Positions 40,091-60,894 of a stretch of DNA of 64,000 bases are shown piece after piece; positions within the stretch are counted from its first letter, which is position 1; every line of letters starts with the position of its first letter. The notes beneath the pieces are model-generated. The model was not told where the DNA came from and searched no databases. It saw only the letters and a program-made list of their open reading frames with translations. Made by a program: the position numbers and the translations under genes. The stretch is taken from positions 1 to 64,000 of IMG/VR virus record IMGVR_UViG_3300042454_000021; one strand, 5' to 3'. The stretch is from a virus.

Positions 40091-40683
40091 TGCTAATTAG
40101 ACCAACATTTGAAGCCAACCCAGAGTTTCGTCAGATAACTCCATATCATATCGCTAATGCCTTTACACAAGAGGAGTTAGAGTGGATAGGTAATTTACAA
40201 CAACTATACCCTTATCAAGATGCTAGTATAGGTGGAGATGAAACATCCCAACTAGATGAGTCTATTAGAAAGTCTAGAATAAAATGGATACATCATGATG
40301 ATAAATCATGGTGGGTGTATGATAAGTTAGTTAAACACATAGAAGAGGCAAACAAAACATGGGGCTTTGCAATCAATTCTATCATTGATTCTATTCAATA
40401 TACAGAATACTATGAAGGTGGTGGTCACTATGACTGGCACATGGACGTAGGAAATCATCCAATGAACAATAGAAAGATTAGTGTAACAATACAACTATCT
40501 TCTCCTGATGATTATGAAGGAGGCGATCTTGAGTTTTGGGTGGGAAGAACTCCAGATAAAGCACCTAGAGAACATTTGTTAGCAATCCTATTCCCTAGTT
40601 ATCTAATGCACAGAGTGACACCAATAACTAAGGGAGTAAGAAAGTCTTTAGTTGTTTGGGTAGGAGGGGATACATTTAGATAG
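40090..40683 (+). CDS. 2OG-Fe(II) oxygenase, paralogue of 37956..38543
   Basis: YDWHMD, RKIS, DYEGG and FPSYLMHRVTPITKGVRKSLV. Confidence 0.9.
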   Translation: MLIRPTFEANPEFRQITPYHIANAFTQEELEWIGNLQQLYPYQDASIGGDETSQLDESIRKSRIKWIHHDDKSWWVYDKLVKHIEEANKTWGFAINSIIDSIQYTEYYEGGGHYDWHMDVGNHPMNNRKISVTIQLSSPDDYEGGDLEFWVGRTPDKAPREHLLAILFPSYLMHRVTPITKGVRKSLVVWVGGDTFR

Positions 40684-41736
40684 TACATCCTCTACAGAGA
40701 TTGTCTTATGACACTCATGTTGTCTAGGAGTATCTTCATGTTCAGGACACCAGTTCCAATCTCCCTTATTAAATCTAAACTTAGGATTGTTCCAACATCC
40801 ATTACATACGCTTCTGTTCTCTATACGTATACAATCAAACTCATGATTAGCTTCAGTGAAGTTTGCTATCATTGCTACCTTCACTTCCATAGCCCAAGCT
40901 AACCAGCTAAGCCCACTACTAAGTCCTATGTACACCTCACAGCTAGCAAGGATATCCATAATGTTTTCTAATGATTGATCTTGTGGTCTATGTACATTCT
41001 TTAAATCACAATCATCTTTAGAGAGTTCGTATACATCGTAGCCTAAAGTTATAAGTGTGTCTATAAGTTCTTGCCATTTGTCCCAAAGTTTTAGTTGTGC
41101 TGTAGACTTTACACTAATACATATATGTTTCTTGTCAGACTTAAAAGCCTTAGGTTTATAAGCTAACCTTGGTCTCATCTCTTTATATGAAAGATTCAAG
41201 ATATCTGTAGCTGATTGTTGTAATGGTATCGTGACAGGATTGTTAGGCTCCTTGTCTTTATCCCAGAACCATCCCAGCTGTGGCATAGCTATAATATTCT
41301 CAACTGTAGATCCTGGTTCAATAAACTCTAGTTCAGGATATGCATCTTTAAACAAAAAGTTTTTGAATGTTGACACAATAACTTTGCACTGGTAACGTTG
41401 TTGAAATTCTAATACGTAAGGCATCCATGCTATGGTGTCACCTAATGCTGCGCTATCAAAGCTAATGAATACACGTTTCCCTTTAAGATGATGTAAGAAA
41501 CTGATACGTTGTTTTAATACACCTTTATCATTTCTAATCTCTACAAAGAAGTTACCAATGTAACGTTTACTGCACTTCATCCACATGCCTTTCTTCAGGA
41601 CATCTTTATAGATTTCTGTACGTACGCCATTACGTTCTTCAACAAACGCACACTGATACTCTTTATCATCATAGCTATCTACTAATTCAAAGTAGAGACC
41701 ATCAATATTATATAGTTTAAAATCCATAATAGGCAT
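40648..41736 (-). CDS. Autotransporter strand-loop-strand O-heptosyltransferase (Aah/TibC, BAHT family)-like
   Basis: ALGDTIAWMPY, STFKN.LF...YPELEF, STAQLKLW, IGLSSGLSWLAW and the Fe-finger cysteines CNGCWN...DWNWCP.H....ECHKTI. Confidence 0.85.
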   Translation of the reverse strand: MPIMDFKLYNIDGLYFELVDSYDDKEYQCAFVEERNGVRTEIYKDVLKKGMWMKCSKRYIGNFFVEIRNDKGVLKQRISFLHHLKGKRVFISFDSAALGDTIAWMPYVLEFQQRYQCKVIVSTFKNFLFKDAYPELEFIEPGSTVENIIAMPQLGWFWDKDKEPNNPVTIPLQQSATDILNLSYKEMRPRLAYKPKAFKSDKKHICISVKSTAQLKLWDKWQELIDTLITLGYDVYELSKDDCDLKNVHRPQDQSLENIMDILASCEVYIGLSSGLSWLAWAMEVKVAMIANFTEANHEFDCIRIENRSVCNGCWNNPKFRFNKGDWNWCPEHEDTPRQHECHKTISVEDVLSKCIPSYPNN

Positions 41737-42727
41737 TTAGATATGCATTGGTTGTATCTTCACTAGTCCATTTCTGATTAATTATACTAACAGCATCATA
41801 GAATTTCTTTAATATCTTACATACTTGTAACCAGCTATGATCTTGACGTTTTATTAATTGTTCATTTCTCATAGCCCCATACTTATTACATACAGTTTGT
41901 ATACCTGTAACTACAGCTTGTGTTGTATTCTCTGGAAGATTATACATACCAGGTAGAGTGACATTAGATGTACCAACAATTGGTAACCCACAACTCATTG
42001 CTTCTAGTATAGAGAGATTAGGATGTCCATACTCTAAGAATGATGGAGCTAAGAAAAGTGTATGATCTTGATATAACTTAAGAGTTTCATCATCTGTAGG
42101 ATTTGTTAACTTTAAAGTTAACTTTTTATAATCCAAAAGATCTTTATGTCCTTCAAAGAATGCATTGTTATTCTCAGGACCAGCAATAGTTATAGGAAGA
42201 TTAAGTCTTTGAGCTGCCTCTATTCCCCATCTAAATCCTTTTCTATCAATTGTACAATCACCTGCTAATCCATTGTTAGCTATCATCAATAAACTATGAT
42301 CTGTAGTAGTTTCTATAGATGGTTTGAAGAAGTCTGTGTTAACGCCATGTGGAAGATAGAACAACTTATCTGTACCATCAAAGTAATCAATGATGTGTTT
42401 ACTATGACATATAGATATAACAGATCCTTTAATAGCTGCTAAGTTATCCTTATACACACCACTATCTTTACCATACCATTCAGCATGATGATCATGTAGT
42501 GAGTAGATGTATGGTATATCTTTGTCACGCATGTCAATAGCTGTGTTAGCCATGTGTACATGAGCTAACATGTTTGGTTCTTTAACTACTTCATTCCAGT
42601 TTTTAATCTCTACGTCTACATCTAATAGTTTTAAGTTAGTAGTGTATTCCCAGATGATACGTTCTACAGCACCCCAACCATTAGGTGGGATGGTGATAAG
42701 TCCTGTTGCTACTTGTACAATTTTCAT
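41717..42727 (-). CDS. GT-B glycosyltransferase (family 4)
   Basis: IPPNGWGAVE, PHGVNTDFF, RKGF and E.GHPNLSILEAMSCGLPIVGT. Confidence 0.88.
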   Translation of the reverse strand: MKIVQVATGLITIPPNGWGAVERIIWEYTTNLKLLDVDVEIKNWNEVVKEPNMLAHVHMANTAIDMRDKDIPYIYSLHDHHAEWYGKDSGVYKDNLAAIKGSVISICHSKHIIDYFDGTDKLFYLPHGVNTDFFKPSIETTTDHSLLMIANNGLAGDCTIDRKGFRWGIEAAQRLNLPITIAGPENNNAFFEGHKDLLDYKKLTLKLTNPTDDETLKLYQDHTLFLAPSFLEYGHPNLSILEAMSCGLPIVGTSNVTLPGMYNLPENTTQAVVTGIQTVCNKYGAMRNEQLIKRQDHSWLQVCKILKKFYDAVSIINQKWTSEDTTNAYLNAYYGF

Positions 42728-45366
42728 TTCTTTATGAATTCTTTATGTTGTTTGTCAATCAATGAATAACCATCTGCCTGTGTTGTAAGTCTTTTATGTA
42801 CAATTCCCATATCATAAGAACTGCTATAAAATATTTGGTTAAAATACATATCAGCTGCGTCCCATTTACTTAAACGCAGTTTTTCCTTTAAAAAGTTACT
42901 GACATAAGAAGGGAACATAATGCATTGTAATCCTATTAAATGATCTGTAACATACATATCTTCATCTACCTCTCTCACTACAGGACTCTGTGGCCATGCA
43001 AACTCTAATGTATCTTTGTCTCCAAAAGACATAAAGCCTATGTTGTTTTTTTCCAACATTAACGCACATTTTTCCACTTTGTGTATGAAATTTCCAACAT
43101 CTCCTTCAATTAAACAATCTCCCTCACAGACTATTATGTATTCGCAGTCATGCATTTCAGCCAATATGGCATTTTTGAATGCTTCATAGCAACCATAGTG
43201 TGCTGGCGTAAGCGCTGTGCTTCGCTCTCTGACTGTAGCCTCATCGAATAACTCCATTGAGATTGCTTGTGGTCTGTTACAGTTATGCTGGGGTGGAAGG
43301 CTGGCATAAGGGATATTCTGGTGGAGGATATACTCCCATCCATAAGCTTTGACTTCTTGTAATGAAGCTCTAGATAATCGTTCTCGTTCATCATTTAATG
43401 TAGTTTGAATGTGTACTAATTTAATTGTAGGTCTGTTCTTATTTGCATTTGCCATTTGCTTTAAAATAATAGTTCCATCATGTTCATATCCATCTAGGAT
43501 ATATAACTCTTCTTTTATTGTCGTCCATTGATCCACTATAAATAACTCTACTGTCTTGACATCATCAGGGATAGGTAACACTAATGTTTGTTTCTCTGAT
43601 AGAGTTATGGATGCAGCTGTAGTAGTATCACTATCATCAAATACAACTTCTATAACTCTATGATCATTATTGTATGAATGGAAATAGAATACATTCTGAC
43701 CAGATATTTGTTCCTTTAGTATTCCATAATACTCACTGTTAGAAGACGTACCATGCCCACTGTGCTCTAGAAAAGTTTCCATATTTGGATACTCTACCCA
43801 CACCCCATTAGTCTTCTGCACCTTCTTCATCATGTAATCTTCTAAGAAGTTCTGAGCTCCTATAGATTCACATAGTTTATTATACTCTTCTGGTGTACGT
43901 ACATCATCTAATAGCTTACCTACAAAGTCTGTATTGAAGAACATACCATTGGTTTGTATACCCTTACCAAATGGTGTATTCAATGTAGCTAGTACAGCTT
44001 GCCATTCACTAGTTAATTTACTAAACCCATTATAGATAGCAGGGAAGTCCTTTTCATCTAGCTCTATATCAAATGTTACATAGAACATCTTATTGAACCC
44101 AAATGCTTTGGCTGCCTTACCTGCATTAATCAAGTTAGTTAGAACAGTGAGAGACTGGTTACTATTTCCAGTTATCTTCATCTCCACCTTAGCTTGTTCA
44201 TCTTCACGATAGAATCTATTGTAGTAGCTATGATGTGTCAAAGGATTGTGTTGATCATAGATGTAATAGTCTACCATTTCCTGTATCTTCTTAGGTACAG
44301 GATAATGACTCACTAACATGATTGGTCTATCCAACTTCTTAGCGCTATTGATGCAATCTATAGTTAGCTTAATCCTGGCATCAGTGTTTGGATAGGTGCC
44401 TATAACAATAAGCTGGTTATTCTTCTCTTGTAGGTTTAATATTTTTCTCATATTTATACTATCAGTATAACTATCGCCACTTAAATAAACTACATCTCTA
44501 TAGTCATCATACTTATTACAATATACATCTAGATTAAACATCATCTTAGGGATGTGTGGATACTCTAGCGCTTCTTTAATAGCTATTGGATTGAGCTCTT
44601 TGTTACCTCTATCTCCTCTAGATGTAAACAAGAACATGTCACAATCTTTTATAAAACTACTAACCCTATCTGATTCTCCATGTACTATACAGTTCTCAGG
44701 AAGATCTTCCATTAATGGTTTCCAATAGCTCTCAAAGTTACCAGCTTGATTACCTAAGAAGTGAAACTTTATATTGTAGTTTATAAGATGTCTAGCTATC
44801 TCTATAGCATAGGCTTGATTCTTACGTGGTGTCCACAGTCCCACTATACAAACGTCAAGGTATTGCTTTACTTTTGGTTCCCTTTTGTCAAGCTTTAGAT
44901 TGACAGGATATTCAATAACTTCCATAGGTACATCCAAGTGAGCATACTTGAAGATGTTATAAGCACTAACAAATACAAAGCTATCAGGCATCCATCTTTT
45001 CTCACTAGGAGGAAATGAACTATCATGTGTAGTTTCTACAATACGATATGTTCTGTCTTCACTATATATTTCTCTAGTTAAATCATTATCCATAAACATC
45101 TCAGGAAACTCTTCCATAGAGATGACATCTGGATTGAAGGTATCGATAAAATCTAAAAGCTCTCTTTTGTTTTCTCCTAGAGATTTAAAGTTGTTTCCAA
45201 TCAAAGTTTGTACCTTCTTGCGCTGTACAACAAAGTTCCATGCAAGAAATGCATATTCCACCACCATGATTTCATAGTGGTCTCGTAACAATTTTACCTT
45301 ATTTAATGTTACCTGGGGTGCTCCTCCTGTACTAAAGTGTGGAGATATAATTAATAGCTTCTTCAT
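42724..45366 (-). CDS. Multidomain glycosyltransferase (N-terminal GT4-like, central GT-A-like, C-terminal GT25-like)
   Basis: PHFSTGGAPQ, VGLWTPRKNQ and ELNPIAIKEA; central LVSHYP...VDYYIYD...FDIE; C-terminal HYGCYEAF...CEGD. Confidence 0.75.
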   Translation of the reverse strand: MKKLLIISPHFSTGGAPQVTLNKVKLLRDHYEIMVVEYAFLAWNFVVQRKKVQTLIGNNFKSLGENKRELLDFIDTFNPDVISMEEFPEMFMDNDLTREIYSEDRTYRIVETTHDSSFPPSEKRWMPDSFVFVSAYNIFKYAHLDVPMEVIEYPVNLKLDKREPKVKQYLDVCIVGLWTPRKNQAYAIEIARHLINYNIKFHFLGNQAGNFESYWKPLMEDLPENCIVHGESDRVSSFIKDCDMFLFTSRGDRGNKELNPIAIKEALEYPHIPKMMFNLDVYCNKYDDYRDVVYLSGDSYTDSINMRKILNLQEKNNQLIVIGTYPNTDARIKLTIDCINSAKKLDRPIMLVSHYPVPKKIQEMVDYYIYDQHNPLTHHSYYNRFYREDEQAKVEMKITGNSNQSLTVLTNLINAGKAAKAFGFNKMFYVTFDIELDEKDFPAIYNGFSKLTSEWQAVLATLNTPFGKGIQTNGMFFNTDFVGKLLDDVRTPEEYNKLCESIGAQNFLEDYMMKKVQKTNGVWVEYPNMETFLEHSGHGTSSNSEYYGILKEQISGQNVFYFHSYNNDHRVIEVVFDDSDTTTAASITLSEKQTLVLPIPDDVKTVELFIVDQWTTIKEELYILDGYEHDGTIILKQMANANKNRPTIKLVHIQTTLNDERERLSRASLQEVKAYGWEYILHQNIPYASLPPQHNCNRPQAISMELFDEATVRERSTALTPAHYGCYEAFKNAILAEMHDCEYIIVCEGDCLIEGDVGNFIHKVEKCALMLEKNNIGFMSFGDKDTLEFAWPQSPVVREVDEDMYVTDHLIGLQCIMFPSYVSNFLKEKLRLSKWDAADMYFNQIFYSSSYDMGIVHKRLTTQADGYSLIDKQHKEFIKK

Positions 45367-46291
45367 AAACTTGATCTACTTCTGGATGACAATAAAACTT
45401 ATCTTTATTTTCAAGGCAACCTATTAAAGGTTGTACGCCTTGTACAGATCCCCACTCCTTAACTCCATATTTCATATCAGAACAACATTGTAGTGCGCAT
45501 GTACCAGCTACATACTTGTAGTTATGATACTGACCATGCACTGTTCTGTATGGAGCTCTGAAGTTAGGATTGAGTGACGAACCCAAGTGTATAATGGGAG
45601 TATTTGTAGTGCCAGCGAGATGTAACAATCCACTGTCCATAGTTATAAAACATGATGCATTATGTATAAGGTGATAACAATCTGATATAGATGTCTGATT
45701 CATTAGATTCATACCATGAGGTATGTCAAAATTAAATACAGGTTTGTCAACATTAAAGAAGCCAGTCTCACTGCTATCTTTACCAATACTAATGACATAA
45801 AACCCTGCATCATTAAGATGCTTAACAAGCTCCATCCATTTCTCAGCAGGCCATGTTCTATTAGGCCACGTACTTACAGGATGTATAAGTATATACTTAT
45901 GGGGTATATCAAATCTATTTGGTTCTATAGGACTGTATTCACAATACAACTCATATCTATCCAACATGAACCCTAATTGTATAGCATGATACTGACGTAT
46001 GTCGATAGTATTATGTTTCATTTCCACTCCTTTTTCATTCTTCTTACCTACATTGGTGAAGGAGTTATGCATAATGAAGTGTTCATTGAAATATTCCCAA
46101 TCGATTGACGTGGACTTGTAACTATTTTGTACGTATGGATTCTTTTTGAACAGCTCTGGTATAGGACTAACCACAGTTATATTCTGTTCATAGGCTCTAG
46201 ATAGTTTTCTTATAGTGGGCGTAGCACATATAAGATCTCCTAGAGCAGGACATTCACTAAGGTTTAGACAAATTGGTTTAGTAGTTGACAT
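45332..46291 (-). CDS. GT9 heptosyltransferase-like glycosyltransferase
   Basis: ALGDLICATP, LFKKNPYV, IHPVSTWPNRTW, MDSGLLHLAGTT and a Cys-rich C-terminus. Confidence 0.85.
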   Translation of the reverse strand: MSTTKPICLNLSECPALGDLICATPTIRKLSRAYEQNITVVSPIPELFKKNPYVQNSYKSTSIDWEYFNEHFIMHNSFTNVGKKNEKGVEMKHNTIDIRQYHAIQLGFMLDRYELYCEYSPIEPNRFDIPHKYILIHPVSTWPNRTWPAEKWMELVKHLNDAGFYVISIGKDSSETGFFNVDKPVFNFDIPHGMNLMNQTSISDCYHLIHNASCFITMDSGLLHLAGTTNTPIIHLGSSLNPNFRAPYRTVHGQYHNYKYVAGTCALQCCSDMKYGVKEWGSVQGVQPLIGCLENKDKFYCHPEVDQVYEEAINYISTL

Positions 46292-46775
46292 AGTATCCAT
46301 ATTTATCATCGCCATATAATAATTTCAATGATGGATATCTACTAGCCATCTTATTGTATGTTAGATCTGGTTGATGATGTGTTTCGTGAATATTACCATA
46401 CTCTTCACCTTGCTCATATAAATAAGGTACAGCAATCAAACACTTCTTACCCAATGCATTAATCTTATCAATTAATGGTATTGCATTATCTAGTGTTAGA
46501 TGTTCTAATACATCTCCTAAGATTAGGTAATTGTAGGGATGAATATCAAACTTACATATGTCTTCTAAGAATACATTATCATAAAGATCTTGTAAATTAA
46601 ACTGATGAATGTAAGGTTCGTAAATTTCAACAGCATCTAAATGACATAGACCTTTTAACATCCTACCATAAGTGCCTGATCCAGGACCTACATCTAAGAC
46701 TTTAAAATCTTTATTTACTACAGAGAGTAAATGCTGTTCTACCTCTTCTTTAAATAGTGAGTAACTATAAGGCAT
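46278..46775 (-). CDS. Class I SAM-dependent methyltransferase
   Basis: VLDVGPGSG, DAVEI and GDVLEH. Start at MPYSYS (46775). Confidence 0.85.
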   Translation of the reverse strand: MPYSYSLFKEEVEQHLLSVVNKDFKVLDVGPGSGTYGRMLKGLCHLDAVEIYEPYIHQFNLQDLYDNVFLEDICKFDIHPYNYLILGDVLEHLTLDNAIPLIDKINALGKKCLIAVPYLYEQGEEYGNIHETHHQPDLTYNKMASRYPSLKLLYGDDKYGYYVNY

Positions 46776-51526: not shown

Positions 51527-51534
51527 TATATTTG
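51527..51534 (+). promoter_or_regulatory. Putative -7 promoter element for the mucin-like/GT block
   Basis: TATATTTG in the intergenic region, 26 nt before ATG 51561. Confidence 0.6.
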
Positions 51535-51560: not shown

Positions 51561-52772
51561 ATGGCTATACCATCTAGACAAATAGGTTGGGGAACAGAGG
51601 AAAATCTGTTATGGCAAATCTCTAAGCAATTAGAGTATTTGTCAGGCATTACATACAATAGTGGTGGAGGATCAGGTTCAGGAACAAGTGGTTCCTCAGG
51701 AACTAGTGGTGGATCAGGTACTTCAGGATCAGCAGGTACTGCTGGATTAAGTGGATCTTCAGGAAGCTCAGGCGTAGCAGGTACATCTGGTTTATCTGGT
51801 GATAGATATAAAACAGAATCTGTTACAGAGTTTACATTAGGAACTGGTGGAACTATAACTGTAGGTACAGGTTTATCATACACTACAGCCCAAGACATCA
51901 TTATATCATATGATTCTACTCATCATCAAGTATCGATGGTTACATCATATGATTCTGGTACAGGTATATTAGTATTTGGTGCACCTTCAGAAACTACAGG
52001 AACAGGAGCATACAGTGACTGGACAGTTAACCTTAATGGTGCTGCAGGTGGTAATGGAACTAATGGAACGTCTGGATCTGCTGGAACAAGTGGACTATCA
52101 GGAACATCAGGTGTTGCTGGTACGTCAGGCTCTGCTGGTACTTCAGGTGCTACAGGAACTAATGGGTCCTCAGGAACTTCTGCATCTAGTGGCACAGCTG
52201 GTACAGCTGGTGTAGCTGGAACTGCAGGTACGTCTGGCACAAGTAGTGGTCCTACTACATCTTATGGTTTATTTGCTCAAACAGCTGATAGTACACCTGT
52301 AACTGCTACTACTGTAGAAACAACAATAGTAGGACCAGGAGTGGGTGGATTATCTGTTCCTGCAAATGGATTCTCTATTGGAGATTCTTTTACTTGTTTA
52401 TTAGATGGTCAGATGTCTTGTACAAGTTCATCAACAGTACATATTCGTGTTAAAACATTATCAGGAGCACTTCTTGCTGATACTGGTATAATTGACTTGG
52501 CTGCTGCAACTAATAAAGCTTGGATAATGAATTTGTATTTTACAATTAGAACATTAGGAGGAGCTGGTACTGCATCACTTTCATCTGGAGGATTGTTTTC
52601 TTACATTAGAAATGGAGGAACTCAGTTTGAAGGATATAATTTAAGTACAGTTAATACCACTACGTTTGACACTACAATAAGTAACACATTGGTAATCACT
52701 GCACAATGGGATAGTAATAGTGTAGATAATTCAATAATTTCTCGAAACTTTACATTAACTAAAGTTTACTAA
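51561..52772 (+). CDS. Fibre/decoration protein with GTS repeats
   Basis: MAIPSRQIGW N-terminal anchor, Gly-X-Y Ser/Thr tracts, a ~90-aa module shared with the 31240 fibre, and a beta-rich C-terminal head. Confidence 0.65.
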   Translation: MAIPSRQIGWGTEENLLWQISKQLEYLSGITYNSGGGSGSGTSGSSGTSGGSGTSGSAGTAGLSGSSGSSGVAGTSGLSGDRYKTESVTEFTLGTGGTITVGTGLSYTTAQDIIISYDSTHHQVSMVTSYDSGTGILVFGAPSETTGTGAYSDWTVNLNGAAGGNGTNGTSGSAGTSGLSGTSGVAGTSGSAGTSGATGTNGSSGTSASSGTAGTAGVAGTAGTSGTSSGPTTSYGLFAQTADSTPVTATTVETTIVGPGVGGLSVPANGFSIGDSFTCLLDGQMSCTSSSTVHIRVKTLSGALLADTGIIDLAAATNKAWIMNLYFTIRTLGGAGTASLSSGGLFSYIRNGGTQFEGYNLSTVNTTTFDTTISNTLVITAQWDSNSVDNSIISRNFTLTKVY

Positions 52773-52773
52773 C

Positions 52774-53187
52774 ATGGCAATTCCATCAAGACAGATAGGC
52801 TGGAGTACAAAGAGTAATTTGCTTTGGCAGATTTCTAAGCAATTAGAAGCTTTATCAGGCATTATGTATGCTAGAGGTAATCCATCAGTTACTTACTATA
52901 ATGTAGCTGGTTGTGAAAGAATGGAATACCATGTAATTAAATACACTGGTGCTGGCACATTAGCAGAAGGTACCATTGTTAATAATGCTACTCCTGAATG
53001 TTGGACTATAATAGATGCAGCAACAGGTCCTGAAGATGTAGGAACTATTGCCTATGTGTGGAACACTCCTAGTGATTGTCAACCTTGTATAGATTCTCAT
53101 ACAACTACTACTACATCTACTAGCACATCGACTACAACATCCACCAGTACGTCGACAACAACAACTACGACTACTGCTGCACCTTAA
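52774..53187 (+). CDS. Putative decoration protein with a mucin-like Thr/Ser tail
   Basis: Same MAIPSRQIGW..NLLWQISKQLE.LSGI N-terminus as the upstream gene, a 4-Cys domain, then TTTTTSTSTSTTTSTSTSTTTTTTTAAP. Confidence 0.6.
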   Translation: MAIPSRQIGWSTKSNLLWQISKQLEALSGIMYARGNPSVTYYNVAGCERMEYHVIKYTGAGTLAEGTIVNNATPECWTIIDAATGPEDVGTIAYVWNTPSDCQPCIDSHTTTTTSTSTSTTTSTSTSTTTTTTTAAP

Positions 53188-53211
53188 GAATTAAATTAAA
53201 CCAACAACTAC

Positions 53212-54228
53212 ATGAAGGAATTAAAATTTATCTGTGCCCAACCAGATGACACCTACTACACTTGGCAGGTACATCTATGGTTAGAAAGCTTAAGAAACAT
53301 TGGACATTCAGATAAGGCTATTGTCCTCATCTTTATCCCATCGTTTAGAGATAAGAATGAGAAATGGCAACAGGTCGTAGACCTCTATCCAGAAGCAGAG
53401 TTTGCTTTCTATAAGGATCAAGATGGCGTAAGTGAAAAGTTAGGAATCTATATTCCTGTATTACGACCTTACTCATTGATGCGCTACTGGCAGGATCATC
53501 CAGACATGAAAGACAAAGCAGTGTTCTACTGCGACTCTGATGTCTTGTTTACAGATAAATTTAATGTTGATGCATATATTGATGACGATATAAACTATTT
53601 ATCAGACACCAATAGCTACATTAACGCTTCATACTTCGATAGTAAGATACACCAAGTGCTTCCTGAAAGGTTGCATGGATATAAAAAAATAGATGTTCTA
53701 GCTCAGGCTACAGAGATGTGTGGTATCACACGTAAAATAGCAGAGGAGAACAACGACCACTCAGGAGGCGCTCAATATTTGTTAAAGAATATTGATGTTA
53801 TGTTCTGGGAGAAGGTACTAAGAGATTGCATTACAATACGTAGTTATTTATTAAACATAAACAGACTATATTTCAAGGATGAATCTGCAGGCTTTCAAAG
53901 TTGGTGTGCTGACATGTGGGCTGTCCTCTGGGCTATTTGGTTTAGAGGTGGGGTCACTAAGAATTTACCTGAAATGGAATTCTCTTGGTCGTCAGATCCT
54001 ATTGACAAGGTCCACAGGTTAGGTATATTACATAACGCTGGTATTGTCAATAAAGATATGGGTGACTACCCAGCATTTTACAAAGGTGAGTATCATATGG
54101 GTAAAGATCCATTTCAAGATCCTCATTTAGAATTAGTATTCAATGATCCAAGAGCTCAACAAAAAGGTACACACTACTACGTTGAGCAAATGATGAAGTT
54201 AAAATATAAGTATAAATTAAATTATTAA
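53212..54228 (+). CDS. GT-A glycosyltransferase resembling plant peptidyl-Ser galactosyltransferase / Hyp arabinosyltransferase (GT96/GT95)
   Basis: YYTWQ near the N-terminus, LRPY, DxD motif (YCDSD), GGAQY and SWCADMWA. Confidence 0.6.
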   Translation: MKELKFICAQPDDTYYTWQVHLWLESLRNIGHSDKAIVLIFIPSFRDKNEKWQQVVDLYPEAEFAFYKDQDGVSEKLGIYIPVLRPYSLMRYWQDHPDMKDKAVFYCDSDVLFTDKFNVDAYIDDDINYLSDTNSYINASYFDSKIHQVLPERLHGYKKIDVLAQATEMCGITRKIAEENNDHSGGAQYLLKNIDVMFWEKVLRDCITIRSYLLNINRLYFKDESAGFQSWCADMWAVLWAIWFRGGVTKNLPEMEFSWSSDPIDKVHRLGILHNAGIVNKDMGDYPAFYKGEYHMGKDPFQDPHLELVFNDPRAQQKGTHYYVEQMMKLKYKYKLNY

Positions 54229-54232
54229 TAAC

Positions 54233-54505
54233 ATGGCAATTCAGAGAGATTTAAAAGCATTTGTTCGCTACGATGGTAGTGGAAGGGTTGTTGCAGGCAG
54301 CCTTATTCTGAGAAAGAACAAGCCAAAAGTGGGAAGATGGCAAGAGATTCCAGCATATGAGTGCTGTAATTACATTCCTACAACTACGACTACTACTACA
54401 GCTAGTCCAACAACAACGACTACTTCTACTAGCACGTCTACTTCTACGACTACGTCAACTAGTACATCTACGTCTACAACTACTACAACGACAACTATTG
54501 TATAA
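54233..54505 (+). CDS. Small protein with a conserved ~48-aa head and a mucin-like Thr/Ser tail
   Basis: LKAFVRYDGSGRVVAGSLILRKNKPKVGRWQEI..ECCN followed by a ~40-aa T/S tract. Confidence 0.7.
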   Translation: MAIQRDLKAFVRYDGSGRVVAGSLILRKNKPKVGRWQEIPAYECCNYIPTTTTTTTASPTTTTTSTSTSTSTTTSTSTSTSTTTTTTTIV

Positions 54506-54507
54506 TC

Positions 54508-54810
54508 ATGGCAAATAGCAATAATCAATTAAAAGCATACGTTCGTTTCGATGGAACAGGACGTATAGTACCAAGCAGCTTAATCTTACAAAGATTCAAG
54601 CCTAAGGATGGTAACTGGCAAGAGATAGATGCAAAAGAATGTTGTAATTTTGTTCCAACAACTACAACAACTACCACTGCAACTCCTACTACTACAACTA
54701 CGTCGTCTTCAACAAGTACGTCAACATCTACTAGTACTTCAACTAGTACAAGTACTTCAACGTCAACGTCTACTAGTACAACTACAACCACTACAACAGC
54801 AGCACCATAA
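54508..54810 (+). CDS. Paralogue of 54233..54505 with a mucin-like Thr/Ser tail
   Basis: LKAYVRFDGTGRIVPSSLILQRFKPKDGNWQEI..ECCN followed by a ~47-aa T/S tract ending AAP. Confidence 0.7.
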   Translation: MANSNNQLKAYVRFDGTGRIVPSSLILQRFKPKDGNWQEIDAKECCNFVPTTTTTTTATPTTTTTSSSTSTSTSTSTSTSTSTSTSTSTSTTTTTTTAAP

Positions 54811-55223
54811 TGGCTAAATCATTATTTCCACAAGAAATGTTAAGTAAAGCAAGTGATAGCGAGCTCTCGTTAGAGAGCATCGCTGCTAAGCTTACTTATT
54901 TTCATGAGCAATTACATTTGACTCATTGGCAAACAAAAAGTTATGCAGAACATCAAGCCACAGGGGCATTGTACGATTATGTACATGATTTCAAAGATGG
55001 ATTGATTGAGAAGCTTATGGGCTATACAGGTAAAAGACCTGGAGTTTATAAAATAGAACCTCTTACAGATTGTACAGCTGAAAAATGTGTAGCAGATATA
55101 ATGTCATTTGCATCATCATTAAAGATGTATGGAGAAAAGAATGCTTATCATGATGTATGTAACTTAGCTGATGCATTGTCTGGAGAGGCAGCAAAAACTA
55201 AATATCTATTAACCTTGTCTTAA
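54810..55223 (+). CDS. Ferritin/Dps-like protein (DUF5856-like)
   Basis: HLTHWQTKSYAEHQATGALYD...D.LIEKLMG...KYLLTLS. Confidence 0.75.
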   Translation: MAKSLFPQEMLSKASDSELSLESIAAKLTYFHEQLHLTHWQTKSYAEHQATGALYDYVHDFKDGLIEKLMGYTGKRPGVYKIEPLTDCTAEKCVADIMSFASSLKMYGEKNAYHDVCNLADALSGEAAKTKYLLTLS

Positions 55224-55507
55224 TGCAAGTAGAGAAGAGATTCTTTCCCAAAATAATGGCTGACAATGATGCAATATATTTCTCGCATCTAGAAGGCATT
55301 ATAGATTCAGTTGATGAATTATCTAGTATGGAAGTTGTAAAACATCCTAAGCACTATTCATTCAGGATTGCACCTTCTCTTCCTATGTATACAAACATGT
55401 TAATAGAGGAACTATTTAAGTTCCACAACAGATTCCAGATCAAACTAAATATGAGTAAAAGCATTAAAACAAATGCAGTTATTTCTTTTGAAATTGATTT
55501 GGGATGA
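55223..55507 (+). CDS. Hypothetical protein
   Basis: 94-aa ORF translationally coupled to the upstream gene. Confidence 0.55.
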   Translation: MQVEKRFFPKIMADNDAIYFSHLEGIIDSVDELSSMEVVKHPKHYSFRIAPSLPMYTNMLIEELFKFHNRFQIKLNMSKSIKTNAVISFEIDLG

Positions 55508-55508
55508 T

Positions 55509-55516
55509 TATATTTG
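55509..55516 (+). promoter_or_regulatory. Putative -7 promoter element
   Basis: TATATTTG with TTTG (55487-55490) 18 nt upstream; before ATG 55539. Confidence 0.55.
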
Positions 55517-55799: not shown

Positions 55800-56225
55800 A
55801 TGAACATTAAAGAATTCGATATGGGCAAGTACATCTTACTGATTGGTAAGGATGCTACTGACATATTCAATTACTATAAAGTTAAAGAAATGCATGGGCT
55901 AAATCTTAAAGATGCCCAAGCAGAAGAGGTTGATAAGACAAAAGGTAATGGTGTATACATCTATGGATTGACAAACTACGATCCTGCAGATAAAAAGCTA
56001 GTAGCTAAAGCTCCTTATAAACCTTTTCTTTTTTTAAACATGGGCACTTTTAAAAGATATAGTGCTGATGAACAGAAAACAGCTATAATGCATGAAACAA
56101 TGCACATGGCTCTTCTCCTATACAAATGGGATGCTGAGAAAAAATCAGAAGAAATAGTAACAATGGCTGAAGATGAGGCTAATAAAATCATCAAAAAACT
56201 CAAAGGTATTAAAGTTATAAAATAA
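55800..56225 (+). CDS. HExxH zincin-like protein
   Basis: IMHETMHMA followed by a downstream EE. Confidence 0.55.
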   Translation: MNIKEFDMGKYILLIGKDATDIFNYYKVKEMHGLNLKDAQAEEVDKTKGNGVYIYGLTNYDPADKKLVAKAPYKPFLFLNMGTFKRYSADEQKTAIMHETMHMALLLYKWDAEKKSEEIVTMAEDEANKIIKKLKGIKVIK

Positions 56226-56422
56226 TGGCAAAGGCAAACAAATCATTAGGTAGTCTTTCAGGACTAAAGGCTTCTAACAAACGTGTAGGACCTGTAGATC
56301 CTAAAGGTGCTTGGACAAAGGTTCAAGAGAAAACTTTAGCAGGAGCTAAAAGTGGTAAACCTTCATTGAAAAAAGATAAAGAACTTGGTGCTACCAAGAT
56401 GGGTGCTAAAAAGAAGAAGTAA
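56225..56422 (+). CDS. Small Lys-rich protein
   Basis: 65 aa with an MAK start; TAATG-coupled at both ends. Confidence 0.6.
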   Translation: MAKANKSLGSLSGLKASNKRVGPVDPKGAWTKVQEKTLAGAKSGKPSLKKDKELGATKMGAKKKK

Positions 56423-56658
56423 TGATCTTTGAACCTGTTAACAGAATAGATGTATCTACACCTAAAGGTGATGGAGTCATCTGGCTTGTTACAGAATATG
56501 GTCATGAAACTGATACAATGTATACAGTTATTATTAACGCCACAGGGGAGCTCTGGCAATTTATTCATAGAGATATTAGGGTAAAACCTAATGTAACATT
56601 TAGAAGATATGGCAAAGGCGAAAGACAAGAATTGGATTCAGAAGGCAGTAAATCCTAA
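56422..56658 (+). CDS. Hypothetical small beta-rich protein
   Basis: 78 aa, TPKGDG..W...YG.E; coupled to the upstream gene. Confidence 0.55.
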   Translation: MIFEPVNRIDVSTPKGDGVIWLVTEYGHETDTMYTVIINATGELWQFIHRDIRVKPNVTFRRYGKGERQELDSEGSKS

Positions 56659-56764
56659 ACATAAAGGTTTCTGCACCCCTATGACAAAAGCTACATGCAC
56701 TCCCAAGCGCAAAGCATTAGCTATGACATTTAAGAAAATGGCTGCAAAGCGTAAGGGTAAATAA
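56609..56764 (+). CDS. Small Lys-rich protein (not in the ORF track)
   Basis: 51 aa: MAKAKDKNWIQKAVNPKHKGFCTPMTKATCTPKRKALAMTFKKMAAKRKGK. Confidence 0.65.
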   Translation: MAKAKDKNWIQKAVNPKHKGFCTPMTKATCTPKRKALAMTFKKMAAKRKGK

Positions 56765-56766
56765 CT

Positions 56767-57090
56767 ATGGCTAAGTCATCACTAAAATCTATGGTGAAGT
56801 CTGGTCTTAGAGCTGGATTACGTAACACACAACCTCAGAATGTCACTAGAGGTAATGGTGTTAAGAATCCACAGAAGGCTACAGCTTATGTAGGTAAGGG
56901 TGTCCTTAGAAATGGTGATAGTATACCAGCAATCAAAGGAGCCATAACACCTGTACCTAATGGTCATCTTATAAAGAAAGATGGCACATCATTAAAGAAT
57001 GGTGGTAAGATAAAGTGCTGGACTGGCTATGTGAAGAAAGGTACCAAGAAGAAAGGTGGTAGAACAGTTAATAACTGCGTTAAGAAATAA
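56767..57090 (+). CDS. Small Lys-rich protein with a CWxGY...G.K.K.G..V.NCV motif
   Basis: C-terminal KCWTGYVKKGTKKKGGRTVNNCVKK; also LKNGG. Confidence 0.65.
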   Translation: MAKSSLKSMVKSGLRAGLRNTQPQNVTRGNGVKNPQKATAYVGKGVLRNGDSIPAIKGAITPVPNGHLIKKDGTSLKNGGKIKCWTGYVKKGTKKKGGRTVNNCVKK

Positions 57091-57218
57091 TGAGAAAGAC
57101 TACTAAACTAGATGCTTTCAGCAAGGTTAAGAAAGCCATGAAGCCTAAAAAAGAAAAGATGTGGATGGATAAGGTTAAGAAAAATTTATCTAAAGTTCAA
57201 TCTATTAAGAAAAGATAA
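57090..57218 (+). CDS. Small Lys-rich protein (not in the ORF track)
   Basis: 42 aa: MRKTTKLDAFSKVKKAMKPKKEKMWMDKVKKNLSKVQSIKKR. TAATG overlaps at both ends. Confidence 0.6.
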   Translation: MRKTTKLDAFSKVKKAMKPKKEKMWMDKVKKNLSKVQSIKKR

Positions 57219-57478
57219 TGGCAAATAAAGCTATTGTTAAAGCTGGTGGTCAAACTCATAAAGTTTTCAAAAAGAAAACTGATAAGGGTATAGGTGATAA
57301 GGGAGACATCGTTGTAGATCATACAGCTGGAATACCAGCAGGTAAATGGGATAAGATTAATCTCACTGCTAAATCTAGAGCTAAAACTGTTAAACAAGGT
57401 GTTGCTTCAGTTAAGAAGTGGCACAAAGACAATCCTGACTATGGCAAAAAGCGAAGCATGGCAAAGAAAGGAAGGTAA
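57218..57478 (+). CDS. Small Lys-rich protein
   Basis: 86-aa basic ORF, coupled to the upstream gene. Confidence 0.6.
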   Translation: MANKAIVKAGGQTHKVFKKKTDKGIGDKGDIVVDHTAGIPAGKWDKINLTAKSRAKTVKQGVASVKKWHKDNPDYGKKRSMAKKGR

Positions 57479-57695
57479 GAATCCTTCTGGTGGCCTAAAT
57501 GCAAAAGGTAGGGCTTCCTACAACAGAGCTAACCCAGGTAAACCTGGTCTTAAAGCTCCACAACCTGAAGGTGGTCCTCGCAAGAAATCATTCTGTGCTA
57601 GGATGTCAGGCATGAAAAAGAAACTAACGTCTGCAAAAACTGCAAACGATCCTAATTCTCGTATCAATAAATCTCTACGTAAGTGGAAGTGTTAA
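57441..57695 (+). CDS. DUF6321-like small basic phage protein
   Basis: AWQRKEGKNPSGGLNAKGRASYN...LKAP...RKKSFCARM...DPNSRINKSLRKWKC. Confidence 0.75.
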   Translation: MAKSEAWQRKEGKNPSGGLNAKGRASYNRANPGKPGLKAPQPEGGPRKKSFCARMSGMKKKLTSAKTANDPNSRINKSLRKWKC

Positions 57696-57696
57696 C

Positions 57697-58152
57697 ATGA
57701 AAAAATTAAAGAAAGCTCAAGTTGGAAGTTTAGTAAAAGGACTATTTAAAGGTGCAATTAAAGGCACTGGAAAAGCTGCAGCTAAAACAGCTCCTAAAGT
57801 ATTAACTTTAGCTGAAAAAGTAGAGGCTAAAAAATTTGCACAAACACCATTAGAAAAGAAAATAGGAAAAGATGCAGATAAAACTTTAAAAAAGTTAAAC
57901 ATTAATAAGTACAATGAAACTCCTCCACCAGCATTCAAATTAACAGCAGAACAAAAAGCTAATAATGATAGAATTCTTAAGAATGCTAACAATAATATGA
58001 AGTCTGGTGGTATGATTAAACGTGCTGATGGTTCTATGTCTAAGCGTGGTTTATGGGACAACATTCGTGCTAACAAAGGCTCAGGTAAGAAACCTACAGC
58101 TGCTATGTTAAAGCAGGAGAAAAAAATTAAAGCTCAAACTAAAAAGAAATAA
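57697..58152 (+). CDS. Lys-rich protein with KKAQVG and MKSGG motifs
   Basis: 151 aa; C-terminal GLWDNIRANKGSGKKPT. Confidence 0.65.
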   Translation: MKKLKKAQVGSLVKGLFKGAIKGTGKAAAKTAPKVLTLAEKVEAKKFAQTPLEKKIGKDADKTLKKLNINKYNETPPPAFKLTAEQKANNDRILKNANNNMKSGGMIKRADGSMSKRGLWDNIRANKGSGKKPTAAMLKQEKKIKAQTKKK

Positions 58153-58943: not shown

Positions 58944-58976
58944 AAAAAGGGAACCATTTGGCTCCCTTTTTCTTTT
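58944..58976. terminator. Bidirectional intrinsic terminator
   Basis: AAAAAGGGA-A-CCA-TT-TGG-C-TCCCTTTTT between convergent gene blocks. Confidence 0.8.
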
Positions 58977-59511
58977 ATGGTTGTAGTGAATTATAGGTAG
59001 ATAGCACTTTATTAATGTAATATTTGTTCTTTGCTTTATTATAACAGTTTTCAGCAAATATACCATCTGCATCTCTTCTACTTAAAACAAATCTTTCATT
59101 ACCTACTAATGATGTATGTAAAATAAAGTTATGACTATCTACATAGCTTAATTTAACTATGTTTCCATACAATCTATGTACACCACTGGTCCATACTTGA
59201 TCAAATGATATAAAGTCATTATCTAAATCTTTGATATTATCCCATAAGTCTGGATGCATAGTTGTATCATCATCATTAAAGTATATCCAACCTTCTGTTA
59301 CTAGATCGATTGCTAAGTTTCTTTGTGCATTTCCACACACGCTGTTTATATCTTTAATGCAATAAGCTTCACATTCTGGGATGTTTTCTGGAATAGTCTC
59401 TGAATCAAAAACAACAATCCACCTGTAGTTATCTTTAGGGATATTGATGCTTTTTGAAACAGCATCTAAAAACTCTGGTCTACTACAAGGGGTGATAATA
59501 TTTAAGAACAT
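58975..59511 (-). CDS. GT2-like glycosyltransferase
   Basis: IITPCSRP, GNAQRN and YFNDDD. Confidence 0.8.
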   Translation of the reverse strand: MFLNIITPCSRPEFLDAVSKSINIPKDNYRWIVVFDSETIPENIPECEAYCIKDINSVCGNAQRNLAIDLVTEGWIYFNDDDTTMHPDLWDNIKDLDNDFISFDQVWTSGVHRLYGNIVKLSYVDSHNFILHTSLVGNERFVLSRRDADGIFAENCYNKAKNKYYINKVLSTYNSLQP

Positions 59512-60155
59512 TCTTTATCATTTCTATGTAACACCAATAACTTATCATTATCCCATCCTGGAGAAAACTTTAACTCATGATCAGCCATAATAAATGTAGC
59601 TGATGAGAAGTATTCTTTAATACCATCTATAGCTTCTATATATCTATTCTCATCTTCCTTAAGGAAAATGTCTTCGATAACAATTATACCTCCTGGTTTA
59701 ACACACTTATATGCTACGTTTAGAAATCTAATCTGATCCTCAAATACATGTGTAGAGTCTTCTATGATTATATCAAAGAAATCATTCTTGTTAAATACGC
59801 TCTTAATAGATTCTTCATTGGTAACATCTATATGAATGTATGTAGCATTTCTCAGATTATCACGTATTCCTTTTTGCAATTTATCATCATGATATTCATA
59901 TCCAAATAAAGCTGCATTAGGAAAGTATTCTCTCCAACATAACATTGAATGGTTGTCCAATATTCCCACTTCACCTATTGTAATTTCCTTATAACGAAGT
60001 TGCGAGAACAATAGGTTATATATAGATGTATAAGCATGTCTATGCAAATGAGATTCATTGTGATAAGGACACTTATCTGTAGGATACTTAACAGCAAGTT
60101 TACACAAATCTGTATTAGCATGTGTAGAGTCAATACTTATTCTATTTATTTGCAT
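59502..60155 (-). CDS. Class I SAM-dependent (sugar O-) methyltransferase
   Basis: TDK...HAY..IY, EVGI...S...WREYFPNA, DIIIEDSTH and KPGGIIVIED. Confidence 0.82.
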   Translation of the reverse strand: MQINRISIDSTHANTDLCKLAVKYPTDKCPYHNESHLHRHAYTSIYNLLFSQLRYKEITIGEVGILDNHSMLCWREYFPNAALFGYEYHDDKLQKGIRDNLRNATYIHIDVTNEESIKSVFNKNDFFDIIIEDSTHVFEDQIRFLNVAYKCVKPGGIIVIEDIFLKEDENRYIEAIDGIKEYFSSATFIMADHELKFSPGWDNDKLLVLHRNDKECS

Positions 60156-60894
60156 TGATGAAATCTTTTAACATTTGATTATAATCTTTATCCCAATGAG
60201 GATTAAGTGTGACTTCGCCTACAGGAACATTTCCTTTGCGTCTTTCTCTTTCTATATGAGCACTATGTCTTTGTATAGCGTTGAGTTTTCCAGAATGATC
60301 TGTACCCTCACCACTCATATGATATCCTCTACCACCCCACATATAGAACCAACTAGCTTCTTCTTTAGGTGGCTTAGCAAACAGCCTTCCCCCATAAGCA
60401 TTGATGTTTTCAATAAAAGTCATATCATATCCAGCATTCTCAAGAGGATGCCCTCCTATAGCTTTCCAAGCTGACTTTCTAAAAACAATACCAGAGTTAC
60501 CTATCCAACCAACTTGTTCAATACCTGTAATGTGACATAGTACACCTACTTCCCAATGAATAATGTTTACATCATTAGTCATGTATTTAACTACATTCTG
60601 TAAATGATTTGGTAGGGCTACATCATCATCATCCCATTGACATATAATTTCTCCTTGACACATCTCTGTTGCATAGTTTTCTTTTTCTCCTATGGTATCA
60701 AAAGTTTTGTCTAGGTTAACTATCTTAACTTGTGGATGATCAAATACAAGAGTTTGTAAAGGATAATCATTAACTATGATAAGCTCACACTTGTCAGCAG
60801 GATAGTCCTGCTTGAGGAAAGATTCTACACTCTCCTCAAGCGTGGACACTCTACCATAAGTTATACACTTACATGAAATGAAAGGTAGTTCCAT
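60142..60894 (-). CDS. GT2 glycosyltransferase
   Basis: CITYGR...ESFLKQDY...ELIIVND, IGEKEN and WDDDD. Confidence 0.88.
   Translation of the reverse strand: MELPFISCKCITYGRVSTLEESVESFLKQDYPADKCELIIVNDYPLQTLVFDHPQVKIVNLDKTFDTIGEKENYATEMCQGEIICQWDDDDVALPNHLQNVVKYMTNDVNIIHWEVGVLCHITGIEQVGWIGNSGIVFRKSAWKAIGGHPLENAGYDMTFIENINAYGGRLFAKPPKEEASWFYMWGGRGYHMSGEGTDHSGKLNAIQRHSAHIERERRKGNVPVGEVTLNPHWDKDYNQMLKDFINANK

Follow-up and report, generated by a model that had tools for sequence, protein, structure and literature searches.

What does a glycosyltransferase-like gene do when it stands directly between small phage genes whose products end in nearly pure threonine and serine? The question is raised by a virus record from IMG/VR (IMGVR_UViG_3300042454_000021; 112,925 bp, 98% complete), whose first 64 kb constitute the stretch of DNA analyzed here and are referred to as the window. 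A first-pass annotation, made from the sequence alone, had proposed that a 338-amino-acid (aa) enzyme encoded at 53212 to 54228 attaches O-linked glycans to the serine/threonine (S/T) tails of three neighboring proteins. A confident structural model and an invariant DxD motif indicate that the enzyme is a GT-A glycosyltransferase, and its gene accompanies S/T-tract genes in both close and distant relatives. We consider it fairly probable that this GT8-like GT-A enzyme O-glycosylates poly-Thr/Ser tracts on phage proteins in the cytoplasm.

All of the open reading frames (ORFs) named in the first-pass annotation were confirmed in position, and the cassette reads as follows.

51561 to 52772, + strand: collagen-like fiber, 403 aa (Pfam Collagen, E = 5e-11; PHROG tail-fiber families)
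52774 to 53187, + strand: 137-aa protein with a 28-residue Thr/Ser tail (89% S+T) and an N-terminal module as in the fiber
53212 to 54228, + strand: 338-aa GT-A (GT8-like) glycosyltransferase as modeled, the proposed writer (phrog_4417; AlphaFold2 fold; DxD motif D108-S-D110)
54233 to 54505, + strand: 90-aa protein with a ~48-aa basic N-terminal domain and a 41-residue Thr/Ser tail (90% S+T)
54508 to 54810, + strand: 100-aa protein with a 50-residue Thr/Ser tail (90% S+T), paralogue of the 90-aa protein

The fiber, which had been described as a GTS-repeat protein upstream of the enzyme, is built from an N-terminal "MAIPS..WQISKQLE" module followed by Gly-x-y (GTS/GSS) repeats in two regions and, at the C-terminus, a globular domain. 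The 137-aa protein is identical to it at 29 of 38 N-terminal residues, after which a small middle domain leads into the tail. The 90- and 100-aa paralogues share 29 of 44 residues in their basic N-domain ("KAFVRYDGSGR..KPKVG.WQEI..ECC"), and the tail of the latter follows the pattern T7-ATP-T5(S/T)nT7-AAP, where T7 stands for seven consecutive threonines.

The enzyme gene is present as a single copy in the genome, and its product corresponds to phrog_4417, a family of unassigned function (E = 5.5e-50; residues 4 to 329 against profile positions 1 to 290 of 293); no Pfam match at E ≤ 1 and no NCBIfam match was obtained. The family is large, with 2,655 clusters when grouped at 90% identity and 748 representatives when grouped at 50%. 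The YYTWQ, CDSD, and WCADMW motifs read earlier from the ORF are present, and an alignment of 72 relatives (30 to 94% identity) showed D108 and D110 to be invariant, together with Y80, Y136, Q229, F257, H274, K291, and Y323; D234 was nearly so. An AlphaFold2 model built with this alignment reached a predicted local distance difference test (pLDDT) score of 97.3 and places D108-S-D110 after model strand E103-106, in support of the earlier assignment of the DxD protein as a glycosyltransferase. Three structure searches concurred on a GT-A fold with GT8 as the nearest class. In total, 102 PDB representatives were found at Z ≥ 8, and the best 50 of the 102 were almost all GT-A glycosyltransferases or nucleotidyltransferases, with GT8 structures (glycogenin, LgtC, Gat1, GlyE, and 3tzt) filling most of the top ranks at Z 12.2 to 14.7. 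No DNA glycosyltransferase fold was among the matches listed. Individual matches were as follows.

Glycogenin: Z 14.1 to 14.7, root mean square deviation 3.6 to 3.9 over 228 to 237 residues
LgtC: Z 13.6 to 14.1
Skp1 alpha-galactosyltransferase Gat1: Z 13.6 to 13.7
WbbM (O-antigen enzyme): Z 13.2
UGGT: Z 12.7 to 13.5
GlyE (pneumococcal serine-rich-repeat glycoprotein pathway): Z 12.7 to 13.1
PBCV-1 A064R domain 1: Z 10.9
Manic Fringe: Z 10.8, from a wide fold search

The best structural neighbors, glycogenin, LgtC, Gat1, XXYLT1, and GlyE, belong to GT8 (Z 12.7 to 14.7 over ~215 to 240 residues) and likewise carry a DxD after a beta-strand. Several of them act in the cytoplasm on proteins or protein-linked glycans, such as glycogenin on its own tyrosine, Gat1 on Skp1, and GlyE on the adhesin PsrP. 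Compared with GT8, however, the phage enzyme is ~80 residues longer, has extra helices, and is only 9 to 13% identical in structural alignments. Pfam PF01501 (Glyco_transf_8) did not match the enzyme (E ≤ 1) and was absent among the families matched by the 72 relatives, and a sequence-profile search of PDB with the enzyme gave no meaningful match. In their sequence order, the invariant H274, K291, and Q229 are compatible with GT8, a class with a retaining mechanism and a His as third metal ligand. Direct reading of the sequence revealed no membrane segment or signal peptide in the enzyme. In relatives that are fusion proteins, the additional domains are GT2, GT25-like or GT32-like (Gly_transf_sug), and methyltransferase.

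The label of a plant-type GT95/GT96 enzyme, under which the protein had been introduced, could not be established. The Pfam HPAT family PF23452 (cut-off, 23.9 bits) gave no match to the enzyme at E ≤ 1 or to any other protein of this phage at E ≤ 10; it was matched by none of the 7 isolate-phage homologues and exceeded the cut-off in none of 18 bacterial genomes. Another large search for homologues, begun from a Myxococcales member, returned no PF23452-labeled protein. PF23452 was nevertheless the commonest sub-threshold Pfam match among the relatives (3 of 72; best E = 0.012). In the ESM Atlas, which relies on a protein language model, 22 of the 30 nearest named clusters, bacterial and viral, carry PF23452 on 10 to 58% of their members, at scores of 0.96 to 0.97 that come with no alignment or E-value. 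We regard this proximity as a lead to a distant relationship, not as membership. The motif order given for GT95/GT96 in the first-pass annotation (YxxWQ, DxD, WxxEMY) is like that of the enzyme. Plant and algal HPAT (GT95, PF23452) and SGT1/SERGT1 (GT96) likewise carry out peptide O-glycosylation of repetitive structural proteins, rich in Ser/Hyp. The plant enzymes are Golgi membrane proteins, whereas the phage enzyme, read directly, is soluble, without a hydrophobic N-terminal segment, and has Thr/Ser rather than hydroxyproline as its proposed acceptor.

The S/T tracts themselves are far beyond chance expectation. Their codons are mixed (ACA/ACT/ACG/ACC and TCT/TCA/TCG/AGT/AGC), and the tracts have almost no 15-mers in common; because synonymous codons are scrambled and 15-mers hardly shared, they are not DNA microsatellites. 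At the protein level, similar tracts built on a T5(S/T)nT7 core recur in four proteins, including a 1669-aa virion structural protein, and in the 90- and 100-aa proteins the core is preceded by T7 and three spacer residues. Scrambled codons underlying similar tracts in four proteins therefore indicate that selection acts on the amino acids. Within the 112.9-kb genome, S/T runs of at least seven residues are confined to the three small proteins and four proteins of the structural block, the latter located as follows.

1740 to 6749, + strand: 1669-aa virion structural protein (phrog_37948/15100, E = 1e-97), a candidate further acceptor
Record positions 103307 to 104446, 108249 to 110066, and 110085 to 110912: three more S/T-run proteins of the structural block, outside the window

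The tracts of the 1669-aa protein are internal, with T7 near residue 1087 and T5(S/T)nT7 around residues 1576 to 1607. One of the three proteins outside the window, of 379 aa, is encoded three genes after the major capsid gene and has its S/T-rich tail at the end; none of the three has a PHROG or Pfam family. The structural block also contains a 3914-aa ORF (14343 to 26087, + strand), whose first 2000 residues had no PHROG match, and the 1669- and 1672-aa ORFs beside it are likewise giant virion-type proteins.

Co-occurrence of the enzyme with such tracts was then scored across viruses by the presence of an ORF with a run of at least 6 S/T residues on the same strand and no farther than 1.5 kb away. 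Such a flanking ORF was present in all 80 related IMG/VR loci (65 to 97% identity). A total of 188 S/T-run ORFs were found near the enzyme and 21 in the remaining 512 kb, or 0.84 versus 0.041 per kb, an approximately 20-fold difference. A stricter criterion (at least 87% S/T in 15 residues) gave 36 of 80, as it misses tails interrupted by A, P, or V, such as T7-VAP-T7. Beyond these loci, a tblastn search with the enzyme (E ≤ 1e-5) matched 77 of 50,697 isolate phage records, and in each of seven distant isolates examined, the homologue (27 to 33% identity) directly follows a protein bearing poly-Thr.

Enterococcus phiFL1A: C-terminal tract on the major tail protein
Lactococcus 1706: C-terminal tract on the major structural protein
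Clostridium phiCTP1: C-terminal tract on gp18
Staphylococcus PMBT8: C-terminal tract on the major tail protein
Lactobacillus iLp84: C-terminal tracts on the capsid protein, gp8, and the tail protein
Levilactobacillus ENFP1: TTVAP-repeat protein
Chryseobacterium MA9V-3: neighboring proteins with long internal S/T tracts

These results bear out the expectation, voiced in the first-pass annotation, that homologues in different phages would be accompanied by S/T-tract ORFs. The tracts of the five small Gram-positive phages are C-terminal tails of capsid or tail-tube-type proteins, most of them without proline. In four of the five, the T7-coding sites that could be mapped to annotated genes fell at the 3' termini of genes of the capsid or tail-tube type; a few sites remained unmapped, phiCTP1, with its shorter tails, has none, and a reversed control pattern gave 0 matches. 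No Pfam GT1 or GT2 domain was found in the five phages, and the enzyme must therefore prime there if glycosylation occurs, an absence that fits a priming role.

The reverse test began from the tracts, with 59 viral loci picked only for encoding Thr8 or longer within an ORF. The enzyme was present in 4 of the 59, always 9 to 141 bp from the tract-bearing ORF. When whole records were searched, it was found in 5 of 38 poly-Thr viral records (13%), compared to 77 of 50,697 isolate genomes (0.15%). The pairing is thus strongly enriched yet asymmetric: the enzyme implies poly-Thr, and poly-Thr does not imply the enzyme.

The proteins that carry the tracts are modular. The 80 loci encode 109 proteins with the "KAFVRYDGSGR" N-domain, 93 of which have S/T runs (71 as C-terminal tails, 22 with further modules after them), and 117 proteins with the fiber-type "MAIPS..WQISKQLE" N-module, 73 with S/T runs and 64 of these terminal. 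Some relatives place T7 to T10 runs between up to five small Cys-containing globular modules; poly-Thr is therefore a tail and an inter-domain linker alike. Comparable tracts are found in cellulases, whose Pro/Thr linkers are O-glycosylated, and in the stalks of serine-rich-repeat adhesins and mucins. No Pfam family was matched by the payload modules. The N-domain of the 100-aa protein was modeled as a 3-stranded beta-sheet (pLDDT ~90 in the core) and had no recognizable relative in PDB (best E = 2.6); the domain has no PHROG, Pfam, or NCBIfam family and no tblastn match in isolate phages. To call the three small proteins virion-anchored, as was done at first, overstates the case; we infer their location in the virion from the fiber N-module, the tract of the 1669-aa virion protein, and the distant phages. 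As a separate observation, one relative joins the "KAFVRYDGSGR" domain through four poly-Thr linkers to a C-terminal module with His..Cys..His..Met spacing, cupredoxin-like by eye and without a Pfam match.

Cellular homologues of the enzyme occur in a different setting. These chromosomal proteins are two-domain (450 to 711 aa) and were found in Sphingobacterium, Pedobacter, Chitinophaga, Mucilaginibacter, Elizabethkingia, and others. Among 36 such loci, a LanC-like gene was present in 31, a C39-peptidase ABC exporter in 22, and thioredoxin-like proteins in 15, while poly-Thr neighbors were absent apart from one small ORF. Precursor peptides in these clusters have an ..LSRxQLKNVLGG leader and Cys/Ser/Thr-rich cores and match TIGR04149 at 27.5 and 30.1 bits (cut-off, 25). 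This setting, that of clusters for ribosomally synthesized and post-translationally modified peptides (RiPPs), points to polypeptide acceptors and against DNA or envelope-glycan acceptors. Judged from their gene content, the Bacteroidota clusters may represent an undescribed class of glycosylated peptides. HlyD is also encoded in these RiPP-like clusters (Sphingobacteriia and Chitinophagia).

In the mechanism that we favor, the enzyme would be soluble, cytoplasmic, and metal-dependent, and a presumed nucleotide sugar would donate the first sugar to Thr/Ser hydroxyls during synthesis of phage proteins during infection of the Bacteroidota host. The proposed substrates are the three small proteins with tails encoded beside the enzyme and the 1669-aa virion protein, probably also the three further tract-bearing proteins of the structural block, and possibly the Gly-Thr-Ser collagen-like fibers. 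Poly-Thr would be a portable tag for glycan acceptance that can form a C-terminal tail or connect an N-terminal attachment domain to small globular modules. The glycosylated tract would be expected to form a mucin-like stalk or brush that is stiff, hydrophilic, and resistant to proteases, the presumed benefit to the phage, and other glycosyltransferases and a methyltransferase of the phage may lengthen the glycan.

Several points weigh against this mechanism. The 80 related loci form one clade, so that their synteny is partly inheritance. Among the sampled poly-Thr viral records, 87% are without the enzyme, including two at least 95% complete with Thr8; poly-Thr can thus occur without modification or depend on other enzymes. 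Of eight short phage-type homologues located on contigs of bacterial metagenome-assembled genomes, three have no nearby S/T run of at least 6 residues. The first-pass annotation had held that a non-glycosyltransferase fold, or a best match to a DNA- or lipopolysaccharide (LPS)-modifying glycosyltransferase, would speak against its proposal: the modeled fold is GT-A and the top matches are not DNA glycosyltransferases, but the lipooligosaccharide (LOS) enzyme LgtC ties with glycogenin at a distance of less than 1 Z unit, so the fold cannot separate a protein from a LOS acceptor. The "KAFVRYDGSGR" domain is without a recognizable fold or annotated relative, so that its attachment to the virion is putative, and with six other glycosyltransferase-like genes in the genome, the enzyme could extend rather than prime here.

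An unlikely alternative keeps the enzyme in protein glycosylation and assigns the first sugar to a GT2 or GT4 enzyme, with the GT8-like enzyme adding a later, alpha-linked one. Such a role would suit its close structural neighbors Gat1, XXYLT1, GlyE, and UGGT, which extend existing protein-linked glycans, and the genome holds at least six other glycosyltransferase-like genes, which Pfam places, together with a methyltransferase, in two blocks.

40648 to 41736, - strand: GT9-like
41717 to 42727, - strand: GT1/GT4-like
42724 to 45366, - strand: 880-aa protein with a GT1 domain (GT1/GT4-like)
45332 to 46315, - strand: GT9-like
58975 to 59511, - strand: weak GT2
59502 to 60155, - strand: methyltransferase
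60142 to 60894, - strand: GT2

The blocks at 40648 to 46315 and 58975 to 60894 are candidate glycan extenders or host-envelope modifiers, with a putative link to the S/T system. However, the five Gram-positive phages with the same pairing yielded no GT1- or GT2-type enzyme, and the 338-aa enzyme is the sole glycosyltransferase gene among the tail-bearing genes, a position kept in 80 of 80 relatives. Of 16 large relatives, 12 have GT9 genes, and the 4 from which these are absent retain the enzyme.

We find it about as unlikely that the enzyme acts on a non-protein acceptor (LOS/LPS core, capsule, a teichoic-acid-like polymer, or a lipid-linked intermediate), for example in superinfection exclusion, with poly-Thr serving as unmodified flexible linkers that happen to be close by. 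The top folds include the LOS galactosyltransferase LgtC and the O-antigen enzyme WbbM (Z 13.2 to 14.1), the genome contains GT9 heptosyltransferase-like genes, and most poly-Thr viral records are without the enzyme. This proposal nonetheless leaves unexplained why the gene is paired with poly-Thr-bearing genes for capsid, tail-tube, or other virion-module proteins in unrelated phages of both Firmicutes and Bacteroidota, whose envelopes differ, and why the cellular homologues sit in RiPP rather than polysaccharide clusters; as read directly, the enzyme also has no membrane segment or signal peptide.

It is very improbable, though suggested by analogy with the RiPP clusters and their GG-leader precursors, that the small tail proteins are intracellular or released glyco-peptide effectors, not virion parts, which the enzyme tailors. 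It is true that the 90- and 100-aa proteins are small and that no virion fold is known for their N-domain. The phage locus, however, has no GG leader, C39 exporter, or LanC-like gene; the 137-aa protein has the N-terminal module of the fiber; the same N-domains occur in relatives on multi-module proteins with poly-Thr linkers; and the tagged proteins of the distant phages are capsid and tail-tube subunits. Glycosylation of modified phage DNA bases, in the manner of TET/JBP-associated and J-base glycosyltransferases (Fringe-like GT-A, GREB1-related), can practically be set aside, for although phage GT-A enzymes of the TET/JBP-associated kind exist (PMC7968844) and Manic Fringe was matched at Z 10.8, the top folds are GT8, 3 Z units over Fringe, the gene lies in a late/structural-type operon with fibers and not with nucleotide-metabolism genes, no hydroxymethylase or TET/JBP gene came up in the window, where no specific search for one was made, and the conserved poly-Thr pairing and RiPP context would be left unexplained.

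O-glycosylation of poly-Thr/Ser tracts by the 338-aa enzyme would not be the first system of its kind. The statement in the first-pass annotation that no phage system of this type had been described is wrong, as virion O-glycosylation by phage-encoded glycosyltransferases has been published for the mycobacteriophages Che8, Corndog, and Myrna (Freeman et al. 2023, Cell Host Microbe 31:1216; summarized in PMC12363180 and PMC12582341). Experimental proof of virion glycosylation by phage-encoded enzymes is confined to mycobacteriophages, whose particles it protects against antibodies (PMC12363180). There, too, phage-encoded cytoplasmic glycosyltransferases modify the phage's own structural proteins, a relationship that the genes suggest here. 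The mycobacteriophage-type arrangement of a phage glycosyltransferase and structural proteins with an acceptor extension is present in this phage, its 80 relatives, and 7 isolate phages, and the distant relatives of the enzyme pair with capsid and tail-tube subunits tagged at their C-termini. The glycans of the mycobacteriophage proteins are reportedly also attached at C-termini. No Mycobacterium phage was among the 77 records matched by tblastn. Unlike the mycobacteriophage systems, the present one has another enzyme family, a pure poly-Thr/Ser acceptor, hosts in Bacteroidota and Firmicutes, dedicated small mucin-like proteins, modular poly-Thr linkers, and a link to RiPP clusters.

Two further systems offer comparisons. 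In serine-rich-repeat adhesins, which GtfA/GtfB prime and GT8 enzymes such as GlyE extend, cytoplasmic O-glycosylation of long Ser/Thr tracts likewise yields a mucin-like stalk; there, however, a GT-B pair primes and accessory Sec exports, whereas here no GtfA/B is present, the substrates are phage proteins, and the tracts are dominated by Thr. Capsid glycosylation in chloroviruses and giant viruses (PBCV-1 A064R) is also virus-encoded, host-independent, and cytoplasmic, and involves several glycosyltransferases and methyltransferases. These are eukaryotic viruses with atypical N-linked glycans on the major capsid protein, not poly-Thr tags.

Phage protein O-glycosylation is probable here and of a kind already known from mycobacteriophages; new are the enzyme family, the bare poly-Thr tag, the host range, the small mucin-like proteins, and the RiPP link. 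No description of this enzyme family, or of poly-Thr-tag glycosylation in Firmicutes or Bacteroidota phages, came up in full-text literature searches. More tentatively, and at somewhat short of even chances, we propose a portable "writer plus tag" system in which an undescribed GT8/HPAT-like family acts on bare poly-Thr across Firmicutes and Bacteroidota phages, including abundant freshwater crAss-like ones, has common ancestry with tailoring enzymes of an undescribed class of glycosylated Bacteroidota RiPPs, and is joined here by about six further glycosyltransferases that build a mucin-like brush from small scaffold proteins and poly-Thr-linked fibers; particle glycosylation would then be common in phages and not an exception. 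Members of the family are found in Gram-positive phages of dairy and clinical settings (Lactococcus, Lactobacillus, Enterococcus, and Staphylococcus) and in abundant lake crAss-like phages; given the size of the family, glycosylated phage particles would be widespread if the proposal holds. This would bear on phage stability, adsorption, adherence to mucus and biofilms, immune recognition in phage therapy, and the interpretation of cryo-electron microscopy maps, and biotechnology would gain a glycosylation tag that is genetically encoded and very simple, made up of one enzyme and a run of Thr7 or longer. For Bacteroidota, the homologues in RiPP clusters point to a new glycosylated-peptide family.

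The cassette may be transcribed together with the two genes that follow it, as suggested by these additional features.

51527 to 51534, + strand: TATATTTG, a promoter-like motif read directly from the sequence, of predicted function
54810 to 55223, + strand: DUF5856 protein (Pfam E = 8e-14; phrog_858, annotated as a starvation-inducible regulator), directly 3' of the cassette
Ending at 55507, + strand: 94-aa protein of no assigned function, co-operonic, following the DUF5856 gene

The first base of TATATTTG lies 34 nucleotides (nt) 5' of the ATG at 51561, and the copy that comes next, at 55509, immediately precedes the subsequent gene; genome-wide, the same octamer begins 21 to 34 nt 5' of four + strand ORF starts. 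It fits the Bacteroidota -7 type consensus, TAnnTTTG. Intergenic gaps are -1 to 24 nt throughout 51561 to 55507, and no + strand terminator-like site was found between these positions. Because of the motif placement, the tight gaps, and the lack of such a site, a single transcription unit from 51561 to 55507 is plausible. A scan for sigma-70 promoters showed no enrichment (16 found versus 21 expected), as expected if the promoter is of Bacteroidota type. The DUF5856 and 94-aa genes keep their position after the cassette in nine related loci inspected.

The genome is that of a crAss-like phage; genes outside the window encode a P22-like portal and a major capsid protein of the Crassvirus type (Pfam Crass_capsid, E = 5e-26). 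Its host is very probably a member of Bacteroidota, since the enzyme relatives, the best isolate match, the fiber C-terminus, and the TATATTTG motif all point there. A search of bacterial assemblies with a 13-sequence alignment placed the nearest enzyme relatives on contigs binned with Sediminibacterium, Cytophagales, and Saprospiraceae (65 to 56% identity), the best isolate-phage match of the enzyme by tblastn was a Chryseobacterium phage, and the fiber, over residues 236 to 403, shares 56% identity with a Flavobacterium podophage protein. A 10-kb megablast search found no match in isolate phages. The habitat is lake water, as the locus is present in runs from many lake and freshwater metagenome studies. 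One lake metatranscriptome contains a 7.9-kb contig, ~92% identical and collinear with the operon, and another contains two exact 151-nt contigs within the enzyme and 90-aa genes; DNA carry-over is possible in both, and neither was counted as expression.

Downstream of the cassette, at 56225 to 58152 (+ strand), lie at least six small, very lysine-rich proteins (42 to 151 aa), several with "KGAWTKVQEKTL" or "RGLWDNIRA"-like motifs, which are candidate internal proteins or DNA-binding proteins packaged in the particle. A prolyl-4-hydroxylase-type 2-oxoglutarate-Fe(II) oxygenase (PF13640, E = 2e-13) is encoded at 40090 to 40683 (+ strand), divergently from the GT9/GT4 block. The phage has three collagen-like fibers, the tails of many relatives have conserved xAP spacers, and protein hydroxylation by this oxygenase is conceivable. 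Just past the structural block, at 35776 to 37401 (+ strand), a 541-aa flavin-dependent tryptophan halogenase is encoded (Pfam Trp_halogenase, E = 6e-103; phrog_2928).

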